Of a stretch of DNA of 64,000 nucleotides, positions 3,168 to 61,597 are shown one piece after another (positions within the stretch are counted from its first letter, which is position 1; every line of letters starts with the position of its first letter). Location of the stretch: assembly GCA_964490395.1 (NCBI GenBank), contig CAZBAS010000004.1, positions 30,615 to 94,614 of the forward strand, in the 5' to 3' direction. A program made the translations under genes and the position numbers. The notes under the pieces are model-generated. The model was not told the DNA's origin. It worked only from the letters and a program-made list of their open reading frames with translations, and searched no databases. The stretch is from an uncultured Candidatus Saccharibacteria bacterium (lineage in GTDB: Bacteria; Patescibacteriota; Doudnabacteria; UBA920).

Positions 3168-3180
3168 CATAGCTAACTCA

Positions 3181-3270
3181 AACAGAAAGCAGCTTAACCT
3201 GCTTTCTCCGACCACCCGGACACGAGTGGCAACCCGCGCATAATTACTGCGCACAAAAAAGGAGACACAT
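3181..3270 (+). promoter_or_regulatory. Conserved hairpin-rich leader element, copy 1 (three stem-loops directly before the SD of the 3271 gene)
   Basis: Stem-loops gaaagcag-cttaac-ctgctttc, ccac..gtgg and gcgc-ataattact-gcgc, then aaaaaggagacacat ATG. Homologous to the elements at 3459 and 3929. Confidence 0.5.
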
Positions 3271-4026: not shown

Positions 4027-4680
4027 ATGCTCAAAATATTTAGTCTTCTTAGCTTTCTGGCGACAATATTGCTTGCAGCACTATATTCGTCAAAAAAACG
4101 AGAATGGGCGGAGGCCGAAGGTCTGCTTGGTCAATCAGAGGCGTCAAAGTATAAAGGAGAAATTTTTGTCGTCGGTTTTATAGAGACGGCAAAGTGTGTC
4201 ACATTTGCACTTATTGGCGTTGACGGATGGACTACTCTAGAAGTTTTTGAGGGTAGTCCAATTCTAGAGGGGTTGCGAAAGAGGTCACAGCACCTTCTTT
4301 GGTTTTCTCTGAGTTGTCTCACGGAAGGTGACACGGCACCCAAAAGGAACCCTGCACGTTTTCTCGATTTTACGAGATTGCTTCAGCGCGCAGATCTTCT
4401 TCAAAGGCACCTTGGTGACATCGCAATAAAATTCCATTCGTTCCCTAAAATGCATCAAGAGGATGCTATCCTTTCAGCGGGGGAAGCAGCAGACATCCTA
4501 GTTGAGTGCTGCAAGGGGTTTAATGCTATTCATGGCGTTAGAATTGCATTGTGGGTGGACTCAATGAGGGGTATGTATGGTGACGAATCTGAGATATTAA
4601 AGGTTCTCGATAAGCTCGAAGAGGATCTTGGCATTTCGTCAATCCGTCGGTTGATGCAACTTCTTCCTGAAGAATCCTAA
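4027..4680 (+). CDS. Hypothetical protein with N-terminal TM
   Basis: The track ORF starts at GTG 4018. ATG at 4027 has better SD spacing (aacggaggtgagcacc ATG). Confidence 0.45.
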   Translation: MLKIFSLLSFLATILLAALYSSKKREWAEAEGLLGQSEASKYKGEIFVVGFIETAKCVTFALIGVDGWTTLEVFEGSPILEGLRKRSQHLLWFSLSCLTEGDTAPKRNPARFLDFTRLLQRADLLQRHLGDIAIKFHSFPKMHQEDAILSAGEAADILVECCKGFNAIHGVRIALWVDSMRGMYGDESEILKVLDKLEEDLGISSIRRLMQLLPEES

Positions 4681-5006: not shown

Positions 5007-5495
5007 ATGAAATTCAGAACTACAATTGTGGTAGGTTTTCTCACACTGCTCGCTATCGGAGCATTTAGTTTCTATGCACACAACGGCTCGGCCGCAACGC
5101 CGCAGAAACAGTTAGCCACAATCTATTTGGCAATCGCGAATAGGCCGGGTGCGGTTGAAAATCAAGAGCACGATGCAACGCATACTTCTGGTGCGCTAAC
5201 CGTTGATGGGACAAGGTTTGAGATTCAGTTCATCTCAAACTTTTCTAACGCCGATATGCCGGCAACCATTACTAGGATTGGGAAAGATCATACGGAGATT
5301 TTGACAATCTCCAGAAGTGGTGATCTTATCGAATCCTACGACATGCCCAACACGCCTGGGGCAACGCCTCAGAACAGGTGGAGCCAAAAAGAAGGTGGTG
5401 CGGAAAACGACCAGGCCATGGGCACTGTTCGTCGCGACAGTTGGTTGAAAATTCTGGCTGAGAAGCTTCAACCGCCTCCGGCACCTGTAGGCTAA
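5007..5495 (+). CDS. Hypothetical secreted/membrane-anchored protein
   Basis: SD aaggtgg before ATG 5007 (MKFRTTIVVGFLTLLAIGAFSF...). The track start at 4965 is a 5' extension. Confidence 0.5.
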   Translation: MKFRTTIVVGFLTLLAIGAFSFYAHNGSAATPQKQLATIYLAIANRPGAVENQEHDATHTSGALTVDGTRFEIQFISNFSNADMPATITRIGKDHTEILTISRSGDLIESYDMPNTPGATPQNRWSQKEGGAENDQAMGTVRRDSWLKILAEKLQPPPAPVG

Positions 5496-16876: not shown

Positions 16877-16977
16877 GTCCAAATTTACAAATGTGACAAA
16901 TCTACAAATACCTACTAATCCTGGTTACGTAATTTGTATTATTTGTAGCCATTTGTAGATTTGTCTTATTCGTAGAT
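16877..16977. repeat. Palindromic intergenic repeat, family C, copy 1
   Basis: gacaaatctacaaat and atttgtagatttgtc form a 15-bp perfect inverted repeat. Homologous to 61493..61597. Confidence 0.6.
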
Positions 16978-17700
16978 TTGAACAATATGTTAATAGAAAT
17001 TAAAGACTTAAAAAAAGACTACATAAACGACGAGGTCGTAACTCCGGTTCTCCACGGGGTAAGTTTTGATATAGAAGAAGGGGAGTTTGTGGCCATTATG
17101 GGCCCTTCAGGGAGTGGTAAGTCAACACTCATGCACATTCTTGGTTTTTTGGACCGGTCTACTGGCGGCACATACAAGTTTGAAGGCAAAAATACTACCA
17201 CCTTTACCGATGAAGAGCTGGCGCGCATTCGCAATGAACGTGTCGGGTTTGTGTTCCAGGCGTTTAACTTGCTTGCTAGAACTACGGTACTCGATAACGT
17301 AAAACTGCCACTTATTTATGGTACTAAAAAGAACCAAGATCAACTGGCTAAGAAGGCATTGGAATCTGTGGGCCTGGGTCACCGGTTAGACTTTTATACC
17401 AACCAAATTTCTGGTGGAGAAAAGCAGCGCGTGGCCATTGCTCGGGCCCTGGCTACTGACCCTGCTGTTATATTTGCGGATGAGCCAACGGGAAACCTGG
17501 ACTCAAAGAGCGGTAATACCGTGATGCATATTCTGCAACGTCTGAACGATGAAGGCAAAACCATCATCTTAGTTACTCATGAAATGGACACGGCAGAACA
17601 CGCCAAGCGCCTCATAAAAGTAAAGGACGGAAACATTGTTGCAGATGAAAAAATTAAACACCGAACTATCGCCAAAGCGGAAGGAGAATTAGTTAAGTAG
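16978..17700 (+). CDS. ABC transporter ATP-binding protein, MacB/LolD/FtsE-type
   Basis: Walker [10 protein letters not shown], signature [15 protein letters not shown], Walker [13 protein letters not shown]. Confidence 0.85.
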
Positions 17701-17732
17701 CTTGTAGGAGTTAGGGATTAGGTTGTAGAAGT

Positions 17733-18098
17733 ATGCCAGTAGAATCGTACAAAGATCTAATAGTGTGGCAAAAGTCGATACAACTGGTATTGCTCATTTA
17801 CGAACTGACGGAAAAATTCCCAAAGTCTGAAATATATGGACTTACTTCCCAAATGCGCCGGTGCGCCGTTTCCGTGCCACCGAACATTGCTGAAGGGAGA
17901 AGGCGTAGCACCCGAAAAGAGTTTGGACATTTTGTGAGCATCGCATTTGGCTCAGGCTCAGAATTGGAAACGCAGCTCATCATATGTAAACAATTACCCT
18001 TTGGTGCAAGCTTGGACTATGCACATATTGATTCAATCCTTAGCGAAATTATGAAAATGCTGAACACTCTCCTGGTTAAGCTACAAGCTAATTCATAA
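17733..18098 (+). CDS. Four-helix-bundle protein (23S rRNA intervening-sequence protein family)
   Basis: LIVWQKSIQLVLLIYELTEKFPKSEIYGLTSQMRRCAVSVPPNIAEG matches the family pattern. Inserted between the ABC ATPase and permease genes. Confidence 0.65.
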   Translation: MPVESYKDLIVWQKSIQLVLLIYELTEKFPKSEIYGLTSQMRRCAVSVPPNIAEGRRRSTRKEFGHFVSIAFGSGSELETQLIICKQLPFGASLDYAHIDSILSEIMKMLNTLLVKLQANS

Positions 18099-18115
18099 AT
18101 CCTAATTCCTTTTTT

Positions 18116-19357
18116 GTGAAATTCATCGGTGAAATAAAATTAGTTATCAAAGGTTTGCTGTCCCGCAAAGGACGGTCGTTTTTGACGATTCTGGGAATTG
18201 TGATAGGAGTGGCGGGTGTTATTACTATTATTTCTCTTGGTGCGGGCGCGCAGAGCTTGGTGTTGTCGCAATTAACGTCCCTCGGAAGTAATTTAGTTGG
18301 TATTTTACCGGGCAAATCAAACGAAACAGGGCCTCCAGCGGCTGTGTTTGGGGTGCAAATTACGACTTTAACACTGGACGATGCTCATGCGTTATTAAAT
18401 AACCCAAGACTGCCCCATGTAGCAGCAGTAGCTGCGTTTACAAGAGGTAGCGCTACAGTAGTATGGAGAAACAAAGATGTAGACACGAGCTTTACTGCAA
18501 CAGAAGGCAGCTTACCCGACGTGCAAAACACACCTATTGCAGTAGGGCGGTTTTTTGACGAACGCGAAGAAAGAAGCGGTGCAAATGTTATTGTACTGGG
18601 CTGGGACGTAAAGAATGAGCTTTTTGATACGCAAGACCCCATTGGCCAGGTGGTAAAAATAAAAAACATACCATTTGAAGTAATTGGTGTAACCAAAAAG
18701 CAGGGGACTGTGGCGTTTCAAAACCAGGACGACCAAGTATATATGCCCCTATCCATTGGGCAAAAACAAATTTTAGGAATAAATTACTTGCAGTTTATTC
18801 GCGCGCGCATAGACCAGACTGCGTTTGTAAAGTCCACCATTGCCGACATAGAACAGTTGTTAAAGGAGCGGCATCGTATTCGTACTGAGGCGGAGGTGGA
18901 TTACTCTGTGCGGGATTTAGCAGACGCCATAAAACTGATAGGAAGCATTACAGACGCGCTTAAATATTTTCTTGCGGCCATGGCAGCGCTTAGTCTTGTG
19001 GTAGGGGGCATAGGTATAATGAACATTATGTTGGTTACGGTTGCAGAGCGTACGCGCGAGATAGGCCTGCGTAAGGCCGTGGGCGCCACAAATAAAAATA
19101 TTCGTAATCAATTTTTGCTTGAGTCCAGCACCGTAACGCTGCTTGGCGGCATAGTTGGTATTATTATAGGCTCACTTCTTGCCTATGGTGCTGCGCTGGG
19201 TGCGCGCTACGCCGGCTATACCTGGGACTTTGTTATTTCCCCGGTGTCTATTTTGGTTGCGGTTGGGGTATCGGTTGGAGTAGGGGTCCTCTTTGGTTAC
19301 TACCCCGCCCGCAAGGCCGCAAAACTGAACCCGATTGAAGCGCTAAGGTACGAATAA
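18116..19357 (+). CDS. ABC transporter permease, FtsX/MacB-like
   Basis: N-terminal TM, large extracytoplasmic domain, then 3 C-terminal TM helices with FtsX-like features. Confidence 0.8.
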   Translation: MKFIGEIKLVIKGLLSRKGRSFLTILGIVIGVAGVITIISLGAGAQSLVLSQLTSLGSNLVGILPGKSNETGPPAAVFGVQITTLTLDDAHALLNNPRLPHVAAVAAFTRGSATVVWRNKDVDTSFTATEGSLPDVQNTPIAVGRFFDEREERSGANVIVLGWDVKNELFDTQDPIGQVVKIKNIPFEVIGVTKKQGTVAFQNQDDQVYMPLSIGQKQILGINYLQFIRARIDQTAFVKSTIADIEQLLKERHRIRTEAEVDYSVRDLADAIKLIGSITDALKYFLAAMAALSLVVGGIGIMNIMLVTVAERTREIGLRKAVGATNKNIRNQFLLESSTVTLLGGIVGIIIGSLLAYGAALGARYAGYTWDFVISPVSILVAVGVSVGVGVLFGYYPARKAAKLNPIEALRYE

Positions 19358-19828
19358 GTATCGATGCTAATATACTAATTTACTAATGAATACTAATTAT
19401 ACAAATAAAAACCAAAAGTTAATTTATCCGGAACTCTCTTTTATAATAACTGGGATATGTTTCGATGTTCACAATGCACAAGGGAGGTTTTGCCGAGAAA
19501 AACAATATGCCGATGCAATAGAAATAATATTAAAGGAGCGTCAAATTCCTTATGCAAGAGAGCATAGAGTTGTAGATACAGGCAATGTCATTGATTTCAT
19601 TATTGATGATAGAATTGTCCTAGAACTCAAAGCAAAGAGGCTCATAGAAAAAGACGACTTTTATCAAGTACAACGATATCTGCAGTCTACAAATAAACCA
19701 TTGGGTTTGTTGGTAAACTTTAGAAATCGTTATATAAAACCCATTAGGATTGTCCGAATTGATACGGATGCGCGACAGCGCTTTCTGGATTAGTATCATT
19801 AGTAAATTAGTATATTAGCATCGATACT
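19358..19828 (+). mobile_element. Putative small mobile element: about 38-bp terminal inverted repeats enclosing a single GxxExxY/PD-(D/E)XK gene
   Basis: Left end agtatcgatgctaatatactaatttactaatgaatacta and right end tagtatcattagtaaattagtatattagcatcgatact are reverse complements apart from one indel. Inserted exactly between the stop of one permease gene and the start of the next. Two miniature ORF-less copies occur elsewhere. Confidence 0.55.
19386..19793 (+). CDS. GxxExxY-family protein (PD-(D/E)XK nuclease superfamily)
   Basis: PELSFIITGICFDVHNAQG...YADAIEIILKERQIPYAREHRV...VIDFIIDDRIVLELKAKR...LGLLVNFRN matches the family consensus pattern. Confidence 0.65.
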   Translation: MNTNYTNKNQKLIYPELSFIITGICFDVHNAQGRFCREKQYADAIEIILKERQIPYAREHRVVDTGNVIDFIIDDRIVLELKAKRLIEKDDFYQVQRYLQSTNKPLGLLVNFRNRYIKPIRIVRIDTDARQRFLD

Positions 19829-21079
19829 ATGCGAACAGCATTTAAACAAGCCTACCGAGGCCTCACCATTAACCCAGCACGCACAGCGCTAACCACGCTG
19901 GGTATTGTTATTGGCATTGCTACAGTTATAGTCGTACTGAGTGCGGGTGCAGGTTTTCGCAGCTTTATAAACTATCAAATAGACCAGTTCGGAAGCAATA
20001 CGGTATATATTCAAACGAAAGTACCGCCGAGCACAAAACAACGGGCACGTGGTGGAGGCGGGGCAGACCAGGCTAACCAGGCAGTACAAATTACGACCCT
20101 CAGAAATCGCGACGTAGAAGATGTGGCCCAGCTCAAAGGTGTGGTGGGGACGTATGGAGCGGTCATTGGCCAGAAAGTGGCGAGCTATAAACAAATTAGC
20201 AAGAATGCATTTATATTTGGCTCGAGCGCATCACGGTTCAAAATAGATAAAGGCGCACTCGCCGAGGGTCGCCCTTACTCCGAACAGGAAGATGCTGCTG
20301 CTGACCAGGTAGCCATCCTTGGGGCGGATATAGCAAAAGACTTGTTTGGTAGCGACACGGGTATAGGTAAAACCATTCGGGTAGGGAATCTGAATTTCAT
20401 TGTCATTGGAGTATACGAACGCCGGGGCAGCTTTGGGTTTAGTAACGACGACCAGCAAGTGTTTATCCCGCTGCAAACCGCTCAGAAAAAACTCCTCGGT
20501 ATAGACCACTTACTGTATATGGTTGCGCAGATTGATAGTTCAGATAATACAGCTCCTGTCGCAGAAGATATACGCATCGTACTTCGTCATAACCACGAAA
20601 TAAAAGACCCAGCCAAAGATGACTTTGACGTACAAAACCAAGCGCAGGCTTTGGAGACGTTTAACGTTATTCTCAAAGGTATAACGCTCTTACTTATTGC
20701 AGTGGCGGCCATAAGTTTGCTGGTTGGCGGTGTGGGCATTATGAACATTATGTACGTGGTCGTTACTGAACGCATTTCCGAGATTGGTCTTAAAAAGGCT
20801 CTTGGCGCAACCCCAAATAACATTCTCAGTGAGTTTTTAATAGAAGCAGTACTCCTTACGTTCCTGGGGGGCATTATTGGTATACTACTTGGCGCACTGG
20901 TGTCGTACGGCATTAGCCTTGCCGCAAACGCGTTTGGCTTTGCCTGGGCATTTAGCGTGCCGCTCAGCGGCATTGCCCTGGGTATGGGCGTTTCTGGCGG
21001 CATAGGACTACTCTTTGGCGTATTTCCCGCCCGCCGCGCCGCCAAGCTCGACCCGATGGAAGCCCTCCGCTACGAATAA
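19829..21079 (+). CDS. ABC transporter permease, FtsX/MacB-like (paralogue of 18116..19357)
   Basis: Same architecture as the upstream permease. C-terminal PARRAAKLDPMEALRYE matches the upstream PARKAAKLNPIEALRYE. Confidence 0.8.
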   Translation: MRTAFKQAYRGLTINPARTALTTLGIVIGIATVIVVLSAGAGFRSFINYQIDQFGSNTVYIQTKVPPSTKQRARGGGGADQANQAVQITTLRNRDVEDVAQLKGVVGTYGAVIGQKVASYKQISKNAFIFGSSASRFKIDKGALAEGRPYSEQEDAAADQVAILGADIAKDLFGSDTGIGKTIRVGNLNFIVIGVYERRGSFGFSNDDQQVFIPLQTAQKKLLGIDHLLYMVAQIDSSDNTAPVAEDIRIVLRHNHEIKDPAKDDFDVQNQAQALETFNVILKGITLLLIAVAAISLLVGGVGIMNIMYVVVTERISEIGLKKALGATPNNILSEFLIEAVLLTFLGGIIGILLGALVSYGISLAANAFGFAWAFSVPLSGIALGMGVSGGIGLLFGVFPARRAAKLDPMEALRYE

Positions 21080-21083
21080 CCTC

Positions 21084-21122
21084 CTTGAAAAATAATTTCA
21101 CAATTGTACAAATATTTTTCAA
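21084..21122. repeat. 39-bp inverted repeat, left copy, flanking the 21156..21851 gene
   Basis: cttgaaaaataatttcacaattgtacaaatatttttcaa. Its reverse complement matches 21852..21890 at 37 of 39 positions. Contains overlapping palindromes ttgtacaa and acaattgt. Confidence 0.7.
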
Positions 21123-21155
21123 TAGCGATTAGTACATAACAATAGTGTAAACCCT

Positions 21156-21851
21156 ATGGGTTATACGAAAGTAAATTCAGATGGTACGCAAGCACTCGCT
21201 ACTGTAGTACGTGCGAGTTTGGGGGTCACAGCGCCAGCAAAACCGTTACTATCACCTGAAAGCATTCATGACTTAAAGAGGGTAGGGGAAATTACACTGG
21301 CACTTGTGGCCATGGTCGGTGCAACAGCGCTAACCATTGTGGCGCCGTCAATATGGAGAGCCGTGAGTGTTGCCCAAAAGATATATAAAGCAACCAGGCG
21401 TGCTACGCCGCGACAAAGCCGCACGCTCGCGCAAGCCATCTACTATTTGAAGAAGCGTGGGTATGTGCGCATAGAACCAAATGGCTTGGGGGATTATATT
21501 ATCTCACTGACACATAAAGGCAAAAGTCGTGTAAGCGAGATAGAATTTAATGCCCTACACGTACCAAAACCTACAATATGGGACAAATCTTGGTGGTGCG
21601 TAGCAGGGGACATACCAACCAAAGAACATCGAGCAGGGGCTGACTTGCTTCGCCGCAAGTTAAAACATATGGGTTTTGCTTCGCTGCAACGTAGTATGTG
21701 GTTTTATCCATTTGACCCTCGCAAGGAAATAAATACAATTACTGAAACGTATCACATTGGTAAGTATGTTACCGTTATGCAGGTGGTAAAGATGGACAAG
21801 GACGACGAAGTAGTACTGAAGCGCCATTTTAAAAAACTCAGAATACTGTAG
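21156..21851 (+). CDS. Hypothetical protein, possibly a PaaX-like winged-helix regulator
   Basis: C-terminal WDKSWWCVAGDIPTKEHRAGADLLRRKLKHMGFASLQRSMWFYP resembles the PaaX C-terminal pattern W.G.W.LV...P...R..LR..L...GFG.L..G.W..P. Confidence 0.35.
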   Translation: MGYTKVNSDGTQALATVVRASLGVTAPAKPLLSPESIHDLKRVGEITLALVAMVGATALTIVAPSIWRAVSVAQKIYKATRRATPRQSRTLAQAIYYLKKRGYVRIEPNGLGDYIISLTHKGKSRVSEIEFNALHVPKPTIWDKSWWCVAGDIPTKEHRAGADLLRRKLKHMGFASLQRSMWFYPFDPRKEINTITETYHIGKYVTVMQVVKMDKDDEVVLKRHFKKLRIL

Positions 21852-21890
21852 TTGAAAAATATTTGTACAATTGTGGAATAATTTTTCAAG
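21852..21890. repeat. 39-bp inverted repeat, right copy
   Basis: ttgaaaaatatttgtacaattgtggaataatttttcaag. Confidence 0.7.
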
Positions 21891-22027
21891 AGTGTAGGAG
21901 TCGGATGGTGTGAGGGGTGTTATGGCGGGGATTTGTGGGATGGGTGCTGGACGGAGGAGGGAGCTTTGAGGTACTATGTAGATATTGTATCGTAAGTAAT
22001 TTTAGTAAACGGAGCATTGGAAGTTAT

Positions 22028-22660
22028 ATGCCATATTTAATTTTAGTAAGACACGGAAAATCAGAGTGGAACCAGCTTGGTTTGTGGACGGGGCATACCG
22101 AAACGGATTTAAATGAAGAGGGAAAGGTAGAGGCCCGCAGGGCTGGTCACGCCTTACAAGATACTCCTATCCATAAAATACACGTTTCAGACATGAGACG
22201 TGCGCAGCAAACGGCGGAAGAAATTAAAACAGCGCTCGGCATTGGCCATATTGAACACGCAACTCACCCCGCACTTAAGGAACGCCACTACGGCATATAT
22301 ACAGGCAAGAATAAATGGCAAGTGAAAGAAGAAATAGGCGAGGAAGAGTTTCAAAAAATTCGGCGCGGCTGGGATACAATAATTCCAGAAGGAGAATCTC
22401 TTAAGGATGTGCACGACCGTATAACCAAATACTACGAAGAAGAGATAAAGCCTCAACTACGAGAAGGCCATAATGTGCTCATAGTTGCTCATGGCAATTC
22501 ACTCAGGGCACTCGCTAAATATATAGAAGGTCTTACCGAAGAAGAAGTAACTGCACTCGAAATAGGCACCGGAGAAATCCATTTCTACCATATGGATAGC
22601 GATGCTAACATGACCAAGAAAGAAATCCGCTCAACAAGCGAAAATAAAGGCAAAGTCTAA
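22028..22660 (+). CDS. gpmA: Histidine-phosphatase-family phosphoglycerate mutase (2,3-BPG-dependent type)
   Basis: LILVRHGKSEWN catalytic His motif. The track ORF start at 21917 is an upstream extension. Confidence 0.65.
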   Translation: MPYLILVRHGKSEWNQLGLWTGHTETDLNEEGKVEARRAGHALQDTPIHKIHVSDMRRAQQTAEEIKTALGIGHIEHATHPALKERHYGIYTGKNKWQVKEEIGEEEFQKIRRGWDTIIPEGESLKDVHDRITKYYEEEIKPQLREGHNVLIVAHGNSLRALAKYIEGLTEEEVTALEIGTGEIHFYHMDSDANMTKKEIRSTSENKGKV

Positions 22661-23506: not shown

Positions 23507-23779
23507 ATGACTAAAACAGAGTTACTCCAGACTCTTGCTGAGAAACTTGGCAAGACCCGCAAAGAAGTAAGCGAGATGATAGAAGCCCTCGTAGAGATGG
23601 CTTACACTGAAACCAAGAAGCATGGTGAATTCACCCTTCCTGGTCTTGGAAAACTCGTAAAGAAGCGCCGCGATGCACGCCAGGGTCGCAACCCAGCAAC
23701 TGGTGAAACCATCCAGATTCCTGCTAAGACTGTTGTGAAGTTCCGCCTTGCAAAAGCAGCTAAGGATGCAATCCTTTAA
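23507..23779 (+). CDS. hup: DNA-binding protein HU
   Basis: 90 aa. GEFTLPGLGKLVKKRRDARQGRNPATGETIQIPAKTVVKFR is the HU beta-arm signature. Confidence 0.9.
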   Translation: MTKTELLQTLAEKLGKTRKEVSEMIEALVEMAYTETKKHGEFTLPGLGKLVKKRRDARQGRNPATGETIQIPAKTVVKFRLAKAAKDAIL

Positions 23780-23784
23780 ATAAT

Positions 23785-23816
23785 AAAAAACCCAGCCAAT
23801 ACGGCTGGGTTTTTTA
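23785..23816. terminator. Bidirectional intrinsic terminator after hup
   Basis: aaaaacccagcc-aata-cggctgggttttt. Confidence 0.8.
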
Positions 23817-23827
23817 TTATTTAAAGC

Positions 23828-23914
23828 AATGTCCAATTTCTAATATCTAATTCTTAATGAGTAGGGCAGTCTTTTGTCCTACTTTAGACATTAGAAATTA
23901 GGTATTAGATATTT
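23828..23914. repeat. AT-rich palindromic repeat, family A, copy 1
   Basis: aatgtccaatttctaatatctaattcttaatg ... gacattagaaattaggtattagatattt. Confidence 0.6.
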
Positions 23915-35376: not shown

Positions 35377-35492
35377 AATGTCTAATTTCTAATATCTAAT
35401 TCCTAATGTCCAGATACCTTTTTGTCTTTCATCCAACTTCGCTAAAGTTATGTCGGACAAGTTAGACCTTAGAAATTAGGAATTAGATATTT
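35377..35492. repeat. AT-rich palindromic repeat, family A, copy 2
   Basis: aatgtctaatttctaatatctaattcctaatgtcc ... gaccttagaaattaggaattagatattt. Confidence 0.6.
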
Positions 35493-38617: not shown

Positions 38618-38703
38618 AATGTCTAAGTTCTAATACCCAATTTCTAACAATCGGAAATTCTACGGTATGTACATTGGACATTGGAAATTAGGTATTAGAC
38701 ATT
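38618..38703. repeat. AT-rich palindromic repeat, family A, copy 3
   Basis: aatgtctaagttctaatacccaatttctaaca ... gacattggaaattaggtattagacatt. Confidence 0.55.
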
Positions 38704-51237: not shown

Positions 51238-51250
51238 AGTATGAAGAAAT

Positions 51251-51346
51251 GCCTAATTCCTAATGTCTAATTTCTAATATCCGGGAATTTCTTATGTCTT
51301 TTGATTAGACATTGGAAATTAGAAATTAGACATTTCCTATAACTTA
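51251..51346. repeat. AT-rich palindromic repeat, family A, copy 4
   Basis: gcctaattcctaatgtctaatttctaatatcc ... gattagacattggaaattagaaattagacattt. Confidence 0.55.

Positions 51347-59429: not shown

Positions 59430-61597
<2,168 letters not shown>

Follow-up and report, generated by a model that had tools for sequence, protein, structure and literature searches.

A stretch of 64,000 nucleotides from the genome of an uncultured Candidatus Saccharibacteria bacterium (contig CAZBAS010000004.1; the whole of this stretch is called the window below) carries a gene for a short protein of the PaaX family (231 aa; 21156-21851, + strand), which is enclosed by two 39-nt sequences in inverted arrangement. 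This "inverted repeat" consists of two copies of one dyad-symmetric site, and not of the one-sided termini (terminal inverted repeats, TIRs) of an inserted element. The reading favoured here, which we hold to be probable, is that the two 39-mers are cognate operators, bound by a PaaX-type dimer which thereby autoregulates or insulates the gene encoding it, the binding itself being predicted. The architecture of the site, its conservation, its specific link to this protein family and the PaaX-like fold of the protein are directly established; binding, dimerisation, repression, looping or roadblock formation, the effect on transcription and membrane anchoring we infer. No description of the family or of the two-palindrome arrangement was found in the searchable literature; the bracketing of a gene by two private palindromes is apparently new to report, and the family apparently undescribed.

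The left arm (21084-21122, CTTGAAAAATAATTTCACAATTGTACAAATATTTTTCAA) begins 4 nt past the stop codon TAA (21077-21079) of a permease gene of the MacB/FtsX type (19829-21079), and the right arm (21852-21890) directly adjoins the stop codon TAG (21849-21851) of the PaaX-like gene, its first base being 21852. A repeat search of the window returned the arms as 39-nt inverted repeats, 95% complementary (37/39) and 729 nt apart. The coordinates and sequences of the preliminary description of this stretch were thus recovered, together with the placement of both arms and the overlapping palindromes ACAATTGT and TTGTACAA that it had noticed in the arm centre. Since each arm alone is an imperfect 38-bp palindrome (19+19 nt, self-complementary to 84% and 79%) and the arms also align as direct repeats (31/38, by our own count), they are two copies of a single dyad site, to which no strand is assigned. 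The upstream near-palindrome proper occupies 21085-21122, with its centre between 21103 and 21104, and the downstream copy is centred between 21870 and 21871. The upstream site is made up of the outer half-sites TTGAAA and TTTCAA, an A/T-rich spacer and the core ACAATTGT.

When up to 3 mismatches are allowed, the 39-mer is found at two places in the 64 kb, which are the two arms, and 100 dinucleotide-preserving shuffles gave 0 matches; the looser patterns TTGAAAAAT-N16-24-ATTTTTCAA and TTGAAA-N25-27-TTTCAA also return both arms only in the 64-kb window. The search for other copies proposed in the preliminary description thus speaks against a dispersed element of the REP (repetitive extragenic palindromic) kind. 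No target-site duplication surrounds the unit, the outer flanks CCTC and AGTG being different. An Rfam search with E up to 1 gave no match at the sites, its only hits being sub-threshold ones at the HU terminator (23750-23900). A candidate third site at 5008-5043 (TGAAATTCAGAACTACAATTGTGGTAGGTTTTCTCA), with the same core and spacing and near-matching half-sites, is statistically unexpected and was judged to be due to chance: it sits in codons 1-12 of a signal-peptide open reading frame and its core is lost in both orthologues, which ruled it out.

The order FtsX, PaaX-like gene, His_Phos_1 (the gpmA-like gene) is common to seven related contigs, in which the identity of the PaaX-like protein goes from 100% down to 59%. 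In all seven intervals the gene has the same orientation and a site stands at both of its ends, which answers the comparison of orthologous intervals that the preliminary description had called for. The upstream site is found at the matching position in L001, L004, L042, L043, L051 and L052; the downstream one follows the stop codon directly in L001 and L004 and is identical in the strains L051 and L052. No empty site lacking the unit was found among the few related genomes sampled.

Between the window, L001 and L004 synonymous sites are saturated (synonymous divergence, dS, of 1.7-4.2) and most of the surrounding intergenic DNA is unalignable; the sites keep about 32/38 identity, with the outer TTGAAAA/TTTTCAA and the core ACA.TTGT invariant. 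Because this identity is kept despite the saturated dS and the unalignable flanks, the sites are taken to be functional, vertically inherited and under purifying selection. The arms are complementary to each other at 95% of positions in the window, at 84% in L004 and at 76% in L001, whose arms align better as a direct repeat. The ratio of nonsynonymous to synonymous divergence (dN/dS) of the PaaX-like gene is 0.03-0.09, as expected of a stably maintained host gene, and the gene too is under purifying selection.

The upstream site of L051 carries four differences, at positions 6, 6, 10 and 19 from the centre. When L051 is compared with the window over 19829-22660, divergence is 7.8% over the second FtsX gene and the upstream site, and at most 0.3% from the start codon of the PaaX-like gene through gpmA. 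This sharp mosaic boundary marks a recombination breakpoint that adjoins the upstream palindrome, just before the start codon.

The arrangement is a property of the family and not of this locus only. A survey with one genome per species found 35 non-redundant loci, all of them from genomes of the Candidate Phyla Radiation (CPR; Candidatus Doudnabacteria, "uncultured Saccharibacteria" and Patescibacteria), with up to three paralogues per genome; the wider family comprises 3527 clusters at 50% identity with E <=0.001, 1955 of them with E <=1e-10. When the 200 nt upstream of each start were compared with the 150 nt downstream of each stop, with 100 shuffles per locus, the shared match beat all 100 shuffles in 26/35 loci (scores 13-44, against shuffle maxima of 6-15). 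Both members of each pair are palindromes of 30-44 bp, many of them perfect and without spacer, and even the remote members L047 and L049 are bracketed by paired palindromes of their own, with different sequences and centres. Within 150 nt of the ends of family genes, the density of long palindromes (34 in 11.1 kb) is 49 times that in the remainder of the same loci (15 in 238.7 kb).

The sequence of the palindrome is the same on the two sides of a gene and private to each locus, even among paralogues of one genome, as in the pairs L018 and L033 or L009 and L023, where fully different sites coexist within a single genome. The paralogues, each with both of its sites, are placed between unrelated housekeeping genes, so the unit must have been duplicated along with both sites. 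The orientation of the pair is not fixed: the direct alignment fits better in L001, L018, L019, L024, L026, L027 and L035, the inverted one in the window, L004, L012 and L038, and for perfect palindromes the two cannot be told apart. Such freedom is expected of dyad sites. Across the loci the site centres are 700-930 bp apart, and in about 17 of them the downstream site lies 0-11 nt past the stop codon. The more similar the proteins, the more similar the sites (Mantel r 0.27-0.42, p <0.001), and no simple residue-base code between protein and sites is evident by eye.

In three loci a third copy of the palindrome brackets one adjacent gene. In L009 (5214-5249) and L017 (4535) it follows the neighbouring gene and in L031 (1501-1536) it precedes it, the genes being a PEP-utilising enzyme in L009 and proteins with no Pfam match in L031 and L017. 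This suggests that some members may control one adjacent gene as well, as a small local regulon. Neither tblastn nor a family hidden Markov model revealed extra or divergent paralogues in the window, which has one copy, or in the loci. In most locus pairs whose proteins are at least 50% identical, the flanks are homologous too; L016, L018 and L037 are mildly incongruent (77% protein identity vs 42% flank identity), which may hint at replacement of the cassette. A scan of viral contigs gave no relatives.

A metagenome collection scanned with a degenerate site pattern gave two unrelated matches, one of them before a mazEF-like pair; the lineage is evidently absent from that collection. In the mazEF-like case (L044, an unrelated contig) positions 3178-3215 form a similar 38-bp palindrome, TTGAAAAAAGTTATTACATTTGTTTTAACATTTTTCAA. 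It overlaps the beginning of a gene for an AbrB/MazE-like antitoxin, with a MazF-like gene next in line, and is probably the own operator of this MazE/MazF-like module. Two further palindromes, perfect or nearly so and unrelated to the family sites, were observed at L037 3806-3853 (48 bp, with the centre CAATCATGATTG) and at L036 1521-1572 (52 bp), the latter resembling a bidirectional terminator.

The anatomy of the site was derived from 48 sites of 29 loci and is tripartite. Positions 1-4 from the centre form a CANNTG core that is symmetric in about 100% of cases (positions 2-3 being symmetric by the selection of the sites), and the locus centres read ACAATTGT, GCAATTGC, ACATATGT or ACAAATGT. 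In the A/T-rich stretch at positions 5-12 symmetry drops to 83-92%; at positions 13-17, which hold almost no family-wide information, it rises to 96-100%, and past position 20 it falls toward background. The locus-specific symmetric positions are thus some 30 bp apart, that is, three helical turns. PaaX of E. coli represses its own promoter Px and has the operator TGATTC-N27-GAATCA (review PMC9493321), which the geometry of the window site, TTGAAA-N26-TTTCAA, matches.

From its N- to its C-terminus the protein has a variable region, a hydrophobic stretch, a predicted winged helix and the Cas2-like PaaX_M domain. Pfam assigns only the last of these (PF20803, residues 142-215, E 4.5e-14, 52.7 bits vs a cut-off of 24), a match present in all 17 aligned homologues. 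The NCBIfam equivalog model for PaaX, TIGR02277, reaches 33.2 bits vs a cut-off of 264.55, over residues 88-214 and profile positions 34-155 of 279, and the protein ends after the Cas2-like domain, without a PaaX_C domain. An AlphaFold2 model built with the 17 homologues (mean predicted local distance difference test, pLDDT, 70.7) is confident from residue 85 on, with a helix at 85-100, a beta-wing at 104-118 (strands 104-108 and 114-118) and then a beta-alpha-beta-beta-alpha-beta domain. In a Foldseek search against the PDB the sole match with E <=0.001 was PaaX of E. coli W (8A39, E 1.3e-5, 217 aligned columns), followed by MarR-family regulators and Cas2 proteins, the structures 3EXC, 5ZYF and 6JHZ among them. 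The Cas2 model of Pfam itself (PF09827, E up to 1) gave no match.

As regards the winged helix, the N-terminal PaaX model of Pfam was not called; the assignment comes from the helix and wing of the AlphaFold2 model at 85-118, where a weak sequence match to the winged helix of AspA was also seen, the helices before residue 85 being of low confidence. The predicted recognition helix, with the motif YYLKK.G, and the wing are encoded at 21408-21509 (codons 85-118, + strand), as placed by AlphaFold2 and by the structure matches to MarR and PaaX proteins; the N-terminal half of this helix differs among paralogues. The Cas2-like domain (21579-21836, codons 142-227, + strand), delimited by Pfam, AlphaFold2 and Foldseek, holds the cluster of invariant residues, D152 at the end of strand 1, R159, D163, R166, K168, Q178 and R179. 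The conserved and very hydrophobic segment ITLALVAMVGATALTIVAP (21291-21347, codons 46-64, + strand) has a Kyte-Doolittle maximum over 19 residues of 2.09, the family median being 2.38; it is strongly hydrophobic in every member, which suggests a possible membrane anchor. Having no effector domain and no paa context, and scoring far below the equivalog cut-off, the protein is not PaaX proper and would be a member of the PaaX family in the broad sense. No paa catabolic genes were found nearby, the neighbours being an ABC exporter with its MacB/FtsX permease, the phosphoglycerate-mutase-like gene (His_Phos_1 by Pfam) and assorted housekeeping genes.

In the operator reading, a PaaX-type dimer would bind each site with its two winged helices about three helical turns apart, on the locus-specific half-sites, some 12-17 bp from the centre on each side, and with CANNTG beneath the dimer axis. 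Placed after the permease stop and ahead of the probable promoter, the upstream site would, when occupied, block initiation or read-through, leading to autoregulation or insulation. The downstream site, fixed at the stop codon, would be a second operator, acting either as looping partner of the upstream one or as a roadblock that closes the unit. In the alignment of three orthologous intergenic regions, the 33 nt between the upstream site and the ATG (21123-21155, + strand) contain AACAAT (21138-21143), a -10-like element that reads TAAAAT or TAGAAT in relatives and that consensus promoter scans did not call. If this element belongs to a promoter, the right half-site would cover its -35 and spacer region.

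The preliminary description had offered paired operators of the encoded regulator as one of its two readings. This part is the best supported, by the family-wide bracketing, the locus-specific half-sites and the PaaX-operator geometry; the control of the downstream gpmA-like gene, which had been coupled to it, is not borne out, as discussed below.

Several observations weigh against the operator reading, or at least find no place in it. No consistent sigma-70-like promoter could be located relative to the upstream site centres across the loci, the distance between the two sites is not helically phased, and near the downstream site, which is retained where a convergent gene follows, no promoter on which it could act is obvious. 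By the Mantel test the sites follow the winged helix no more clearly than the Cas2-like domain; moreover, the N-terminal 84 residues of the model are of low confidence, and a repressor with an N-terminal membrane anchor would be unusual. Finally, 15 compensated, symmetry-preserving differences separate the copies within loci, vs 2.3 +/- 1.5 expected, and 0/5000 simulations reached 15. One protein reading duplex DNA does not predict such changes, which suggest either selected hairpin or cruciform formation or the symmetrisation of quasi-palindromes by template switching. The operator model thus explains neither these changes nor the hydrophobic segment nor what the downstream site does.

The compensated changes would favour a purely structural explanation, in which the palindromes act as RNA hairpins (terminator, RNase III-type processing site or stabiliser, at both cistron ends) or as DNA cruciforms, and the encoded protein does not recognise their sequence. 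The many perfect palindromes of 30-44 bp without spacer and the downstream sites close behind stop codons would also fit, as would the fact that many family genes shortly follow a co-directional gene, the sites being then probably transcribed; in the same operon, inverted repeats also surround other small genes, as they do 23S rRNA intervening sequences. Nevertheless, structure gives no account of the same sequence at both ends, of the paralogue-private sequences or of the 49-fold enrichment at family gene ends. Unlike a plain stem, the sites have their lowest symmetry at positions 5-12 and their highest at 1-4 and 13-17; mismatched pairs show no bias for G-U over A-C on the sense strand (15 G/T vs 13 A/C, a test of low power), and some sites, e.g. 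that of L013, have a T-tract before the stem and an A-tract after it. The arms of the window fold weakly (-4.9 to -12.7 kcal/mol, z -1.2 to -2.5) and neither was called in the terminator scan, whereas the canonical terminators of the window are GC-rich stems with A/T tracts; on these grounds termination was rejected as the main function. Taken as a whole, the structural explanation seems rather unlikely. Somewhat less likely again is a reading that overlaps with the others, in which the unit is an autonomous, self-recognising module of a so far undescribed kind: a membrane-anchored protein, inserted co-translationally, would act only in cis on its private palindromes, possibly extruded as cruciforms or hairpins. 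Such a module could clamp the locus to the membrane, so that orthogonal paralogues provide several anchor points in tiny cells, or its Asp152 site could nick the palindromes and let the unit spread as a hairpin-ended cassette. If true, it would explain why the protein has a hydrophobic segment, why a second site stands at the stop codon and why compensated symmetric changes occur.

Whether the site-gene-site unit is, or recently was, a mobile or selfish cassette with the palindromes as its substrates, possibly cut by the Cas2-like domain, bears directly on the other earlier reading, that of a TIR-bounded insertion. Several diverged paralogues in each small genome, each with both sites and between unrelated housekeeping genes, sites that abut neighbouring genes, an invariant Asp152 at the place of the catalytic Asp of Cas2 (the end of strand 1), the breakpoint adjoining the upstream site in L051 and the existence of genuine repeat-flanked cassettes in the same operon would all agree with mobility. 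Against it, there is no presence/absence polymorphism, the unit being in 7/7 related FtsX-gpmA intervals at 59-100% protein identity; most pairs with at least 50% identity share homologous flanks, no near-identical copies occur in other contexts and the orientation of the ends is not conserved. No relatives were met in viral contigs, PADLOC matched the unit to no defence system, and the low dN/dS points to a stably maintained host gene. We consider a mobile unit very improbable, and an insertion bounded by TIRs is not supported, given the unfixed orientation, the missing target-site duplication, the two copies only and the presence of the unit in every orthologous interval examined. It is slightly less probable still that the downstream copy places the gpmA-like gene under the control of the regulator. 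The downstream gene is co-directional in 20/31 loci, several downstream genes belong to sugar-phosphate metabolism (His_Phos_1, GPI, inositol monophosphatase, PEP-utilising enzyme), and a third copy stands beside a neighbouring gene in the three loci named above; on the other hand, neighbouring genes are otherwise functionally unrelated housekeeping genes, and in 11/31 loci the downstream gene is convergent, the site being kept in at least 9 of those 11. Moreover, the gpmA-like gene is preceded by a block of its own of about 100 nt (21940-22027, CTGGACGGAGGAGGGAGCTTTGAGGTA ... AGTAATTTTAGTAA), conserved in L001 and L004 despite saturated synonymous divergence, which has -35/-10-like elements, reads LDGGGSFEV in one frame, has no match in Rfam and probably contains the promoter of gpmA as well as a leader or regulator site. 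The distance from this block to the site varies between about 45 and 100 nt; the site itself stays fixed to the stop codon of the regulator. Least of all do we expect a generic REP-like or miniature inverted-repeat transposable element (MITE)-like repeat, or a switch that flips the gene by recombination between its repeats. Although the arrangement in the window is inverted and this genome does contain dispersed hairpin repeats, the site has two copies in 64 kb even with loose patterns, the only extra candidate being the coding coincidence at 5008-5043; gene orientation is identical in seven related genomes, no recombinase gene is adjacent, and many loci have direct pairs.

The genuine cassettes and repeats referred to above are found close by. 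Between the two FtsX genes lies a gene of the PDDEXK_3 (GxxExxY) type (19386-19793), enclosed by a perfect 33-bp inverted repeat (19357-19389 / 19796-19828). Its slot is empty in L004 (a 14-nt spacer, 4659-4672) and in L001 is occupied by a 23S_rRNA_IVP gene with inverted repeats of its own (4262-4673); it is a true presence/absence cassette, possibly a nuclease gene inserted in a hairpin target. The window has a 23S_rRNA_IVP gene too (17733-18098), with a 39-nt inverted repeat of 72% complementarity (17669-17707 / 18081-18119), and the presence of such genes varies among related contigs. Furthermore, there are two gene-less families of intergenic hairpin repeats with units of about 7-nt periodicity, AATGTCTAATTTCTAATATCTAA with 9 matches and ACAAATCTACAAAT with 4, where shuffles predict about none. 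These dispersed hairpins (23828-23906, 35377-35491, 38618-38640 and 51248-51334; also 16877-16983 and 61496-61596) represent the REP/MITE-like class in this genome and are similar in style to the arms of the PDDEXK_3 cassette.

The family is of interest since next to nothing is known about regulation in CPR bacteria (Patescibacteria), in whose genomes few transcription factors can be recognised. Each family member checked brings its own predicted binding site, twice, which gives dozens of pairs of protein and DNA site. These pairs could be used to study how PaaX-type winged helices read DNA, to obtain orthogonal repressor/operator sets and to approach the role of a Cas2-like domain outside CRISPR. 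As a rule for annotation, matching inverted repeats around a gene need not mean a mobile cassette; operators are told from transposon ends by the self-palindromy of each arm and by the conservation of orientation in relatives.

Among known systems, PaaX of E. coli and Pseudomonas comes closest: its winged helix, a domain predicted for the present protein, precedes a Cas2-like central domain (PF20803), no structure matches better than 8A39, and its operator also consists of two 6-bp inverted half-sites, separated by N27 there (PMC9493321) and by N26 here. Unlike PaaX, the present protein lacks the PaaX_C effector domain and paa genes in its vicinity, falls far below the equivalog cut-off, escapes the N-terminal PaaX model of Pfam and bears an N-terminal hydrophobic segment. 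As for the operator, here the whole 38 bp tends to a palindrome around a conserved CANNTG centre, a second site stands at the 3' end of the gene, and there are several paralogues per genome, each with a private site.

The 23S_rRNA_IVP and PDDEXK_3 cassettes are similar in that a small gene is tightly bracketed by repeats between housekeeping genes. However, their arms are not self-palindromic, they form one perfect inverted pair (33/33) and are present or absent between close relatives, whereas the PaaX-like unit does not vary in presence and has a full palindrome in each arm. With Cas2 the protein shares the ferredoxin-like beta-alpha-beta-beta-alpha-beta fold and an acidic residue ending strand 1, and the gene lies between two partly palindromic repeats of the size of CRISPR repeats; the resemblance is one of fold only, as the neighbourhood has no Cas1 or other cas genes and no array, and the "spacer" between the repeats is the gene itself.

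REPtrons consist of a RAYT (TnpA-REP) gene flanked by inverted REP palindromes that co-vary with it, and they are vertically inherited, with a single copy per type. The likeness, a single gene bracketed by palindromes whose sequence co-varies with it, is evident; here, in contrast, there is no Y1/HUH transposase (no Y1_Tnp domain), the palindromes are not dispersed (two in 64 kb) and their orientation is not fixed. Finally, GalR, DeoR and LacI, with its auxiliary operators, are repressors that form DNA loops by joining operators on either side of a transcription unit. Here, too, two equal putative operators, their centres 700-930 bp apart, surround the promoter or gene that they would regulate, but without helical phasing, and with the second operator past the stop codon, where it encloses the whole gene of the regulator.

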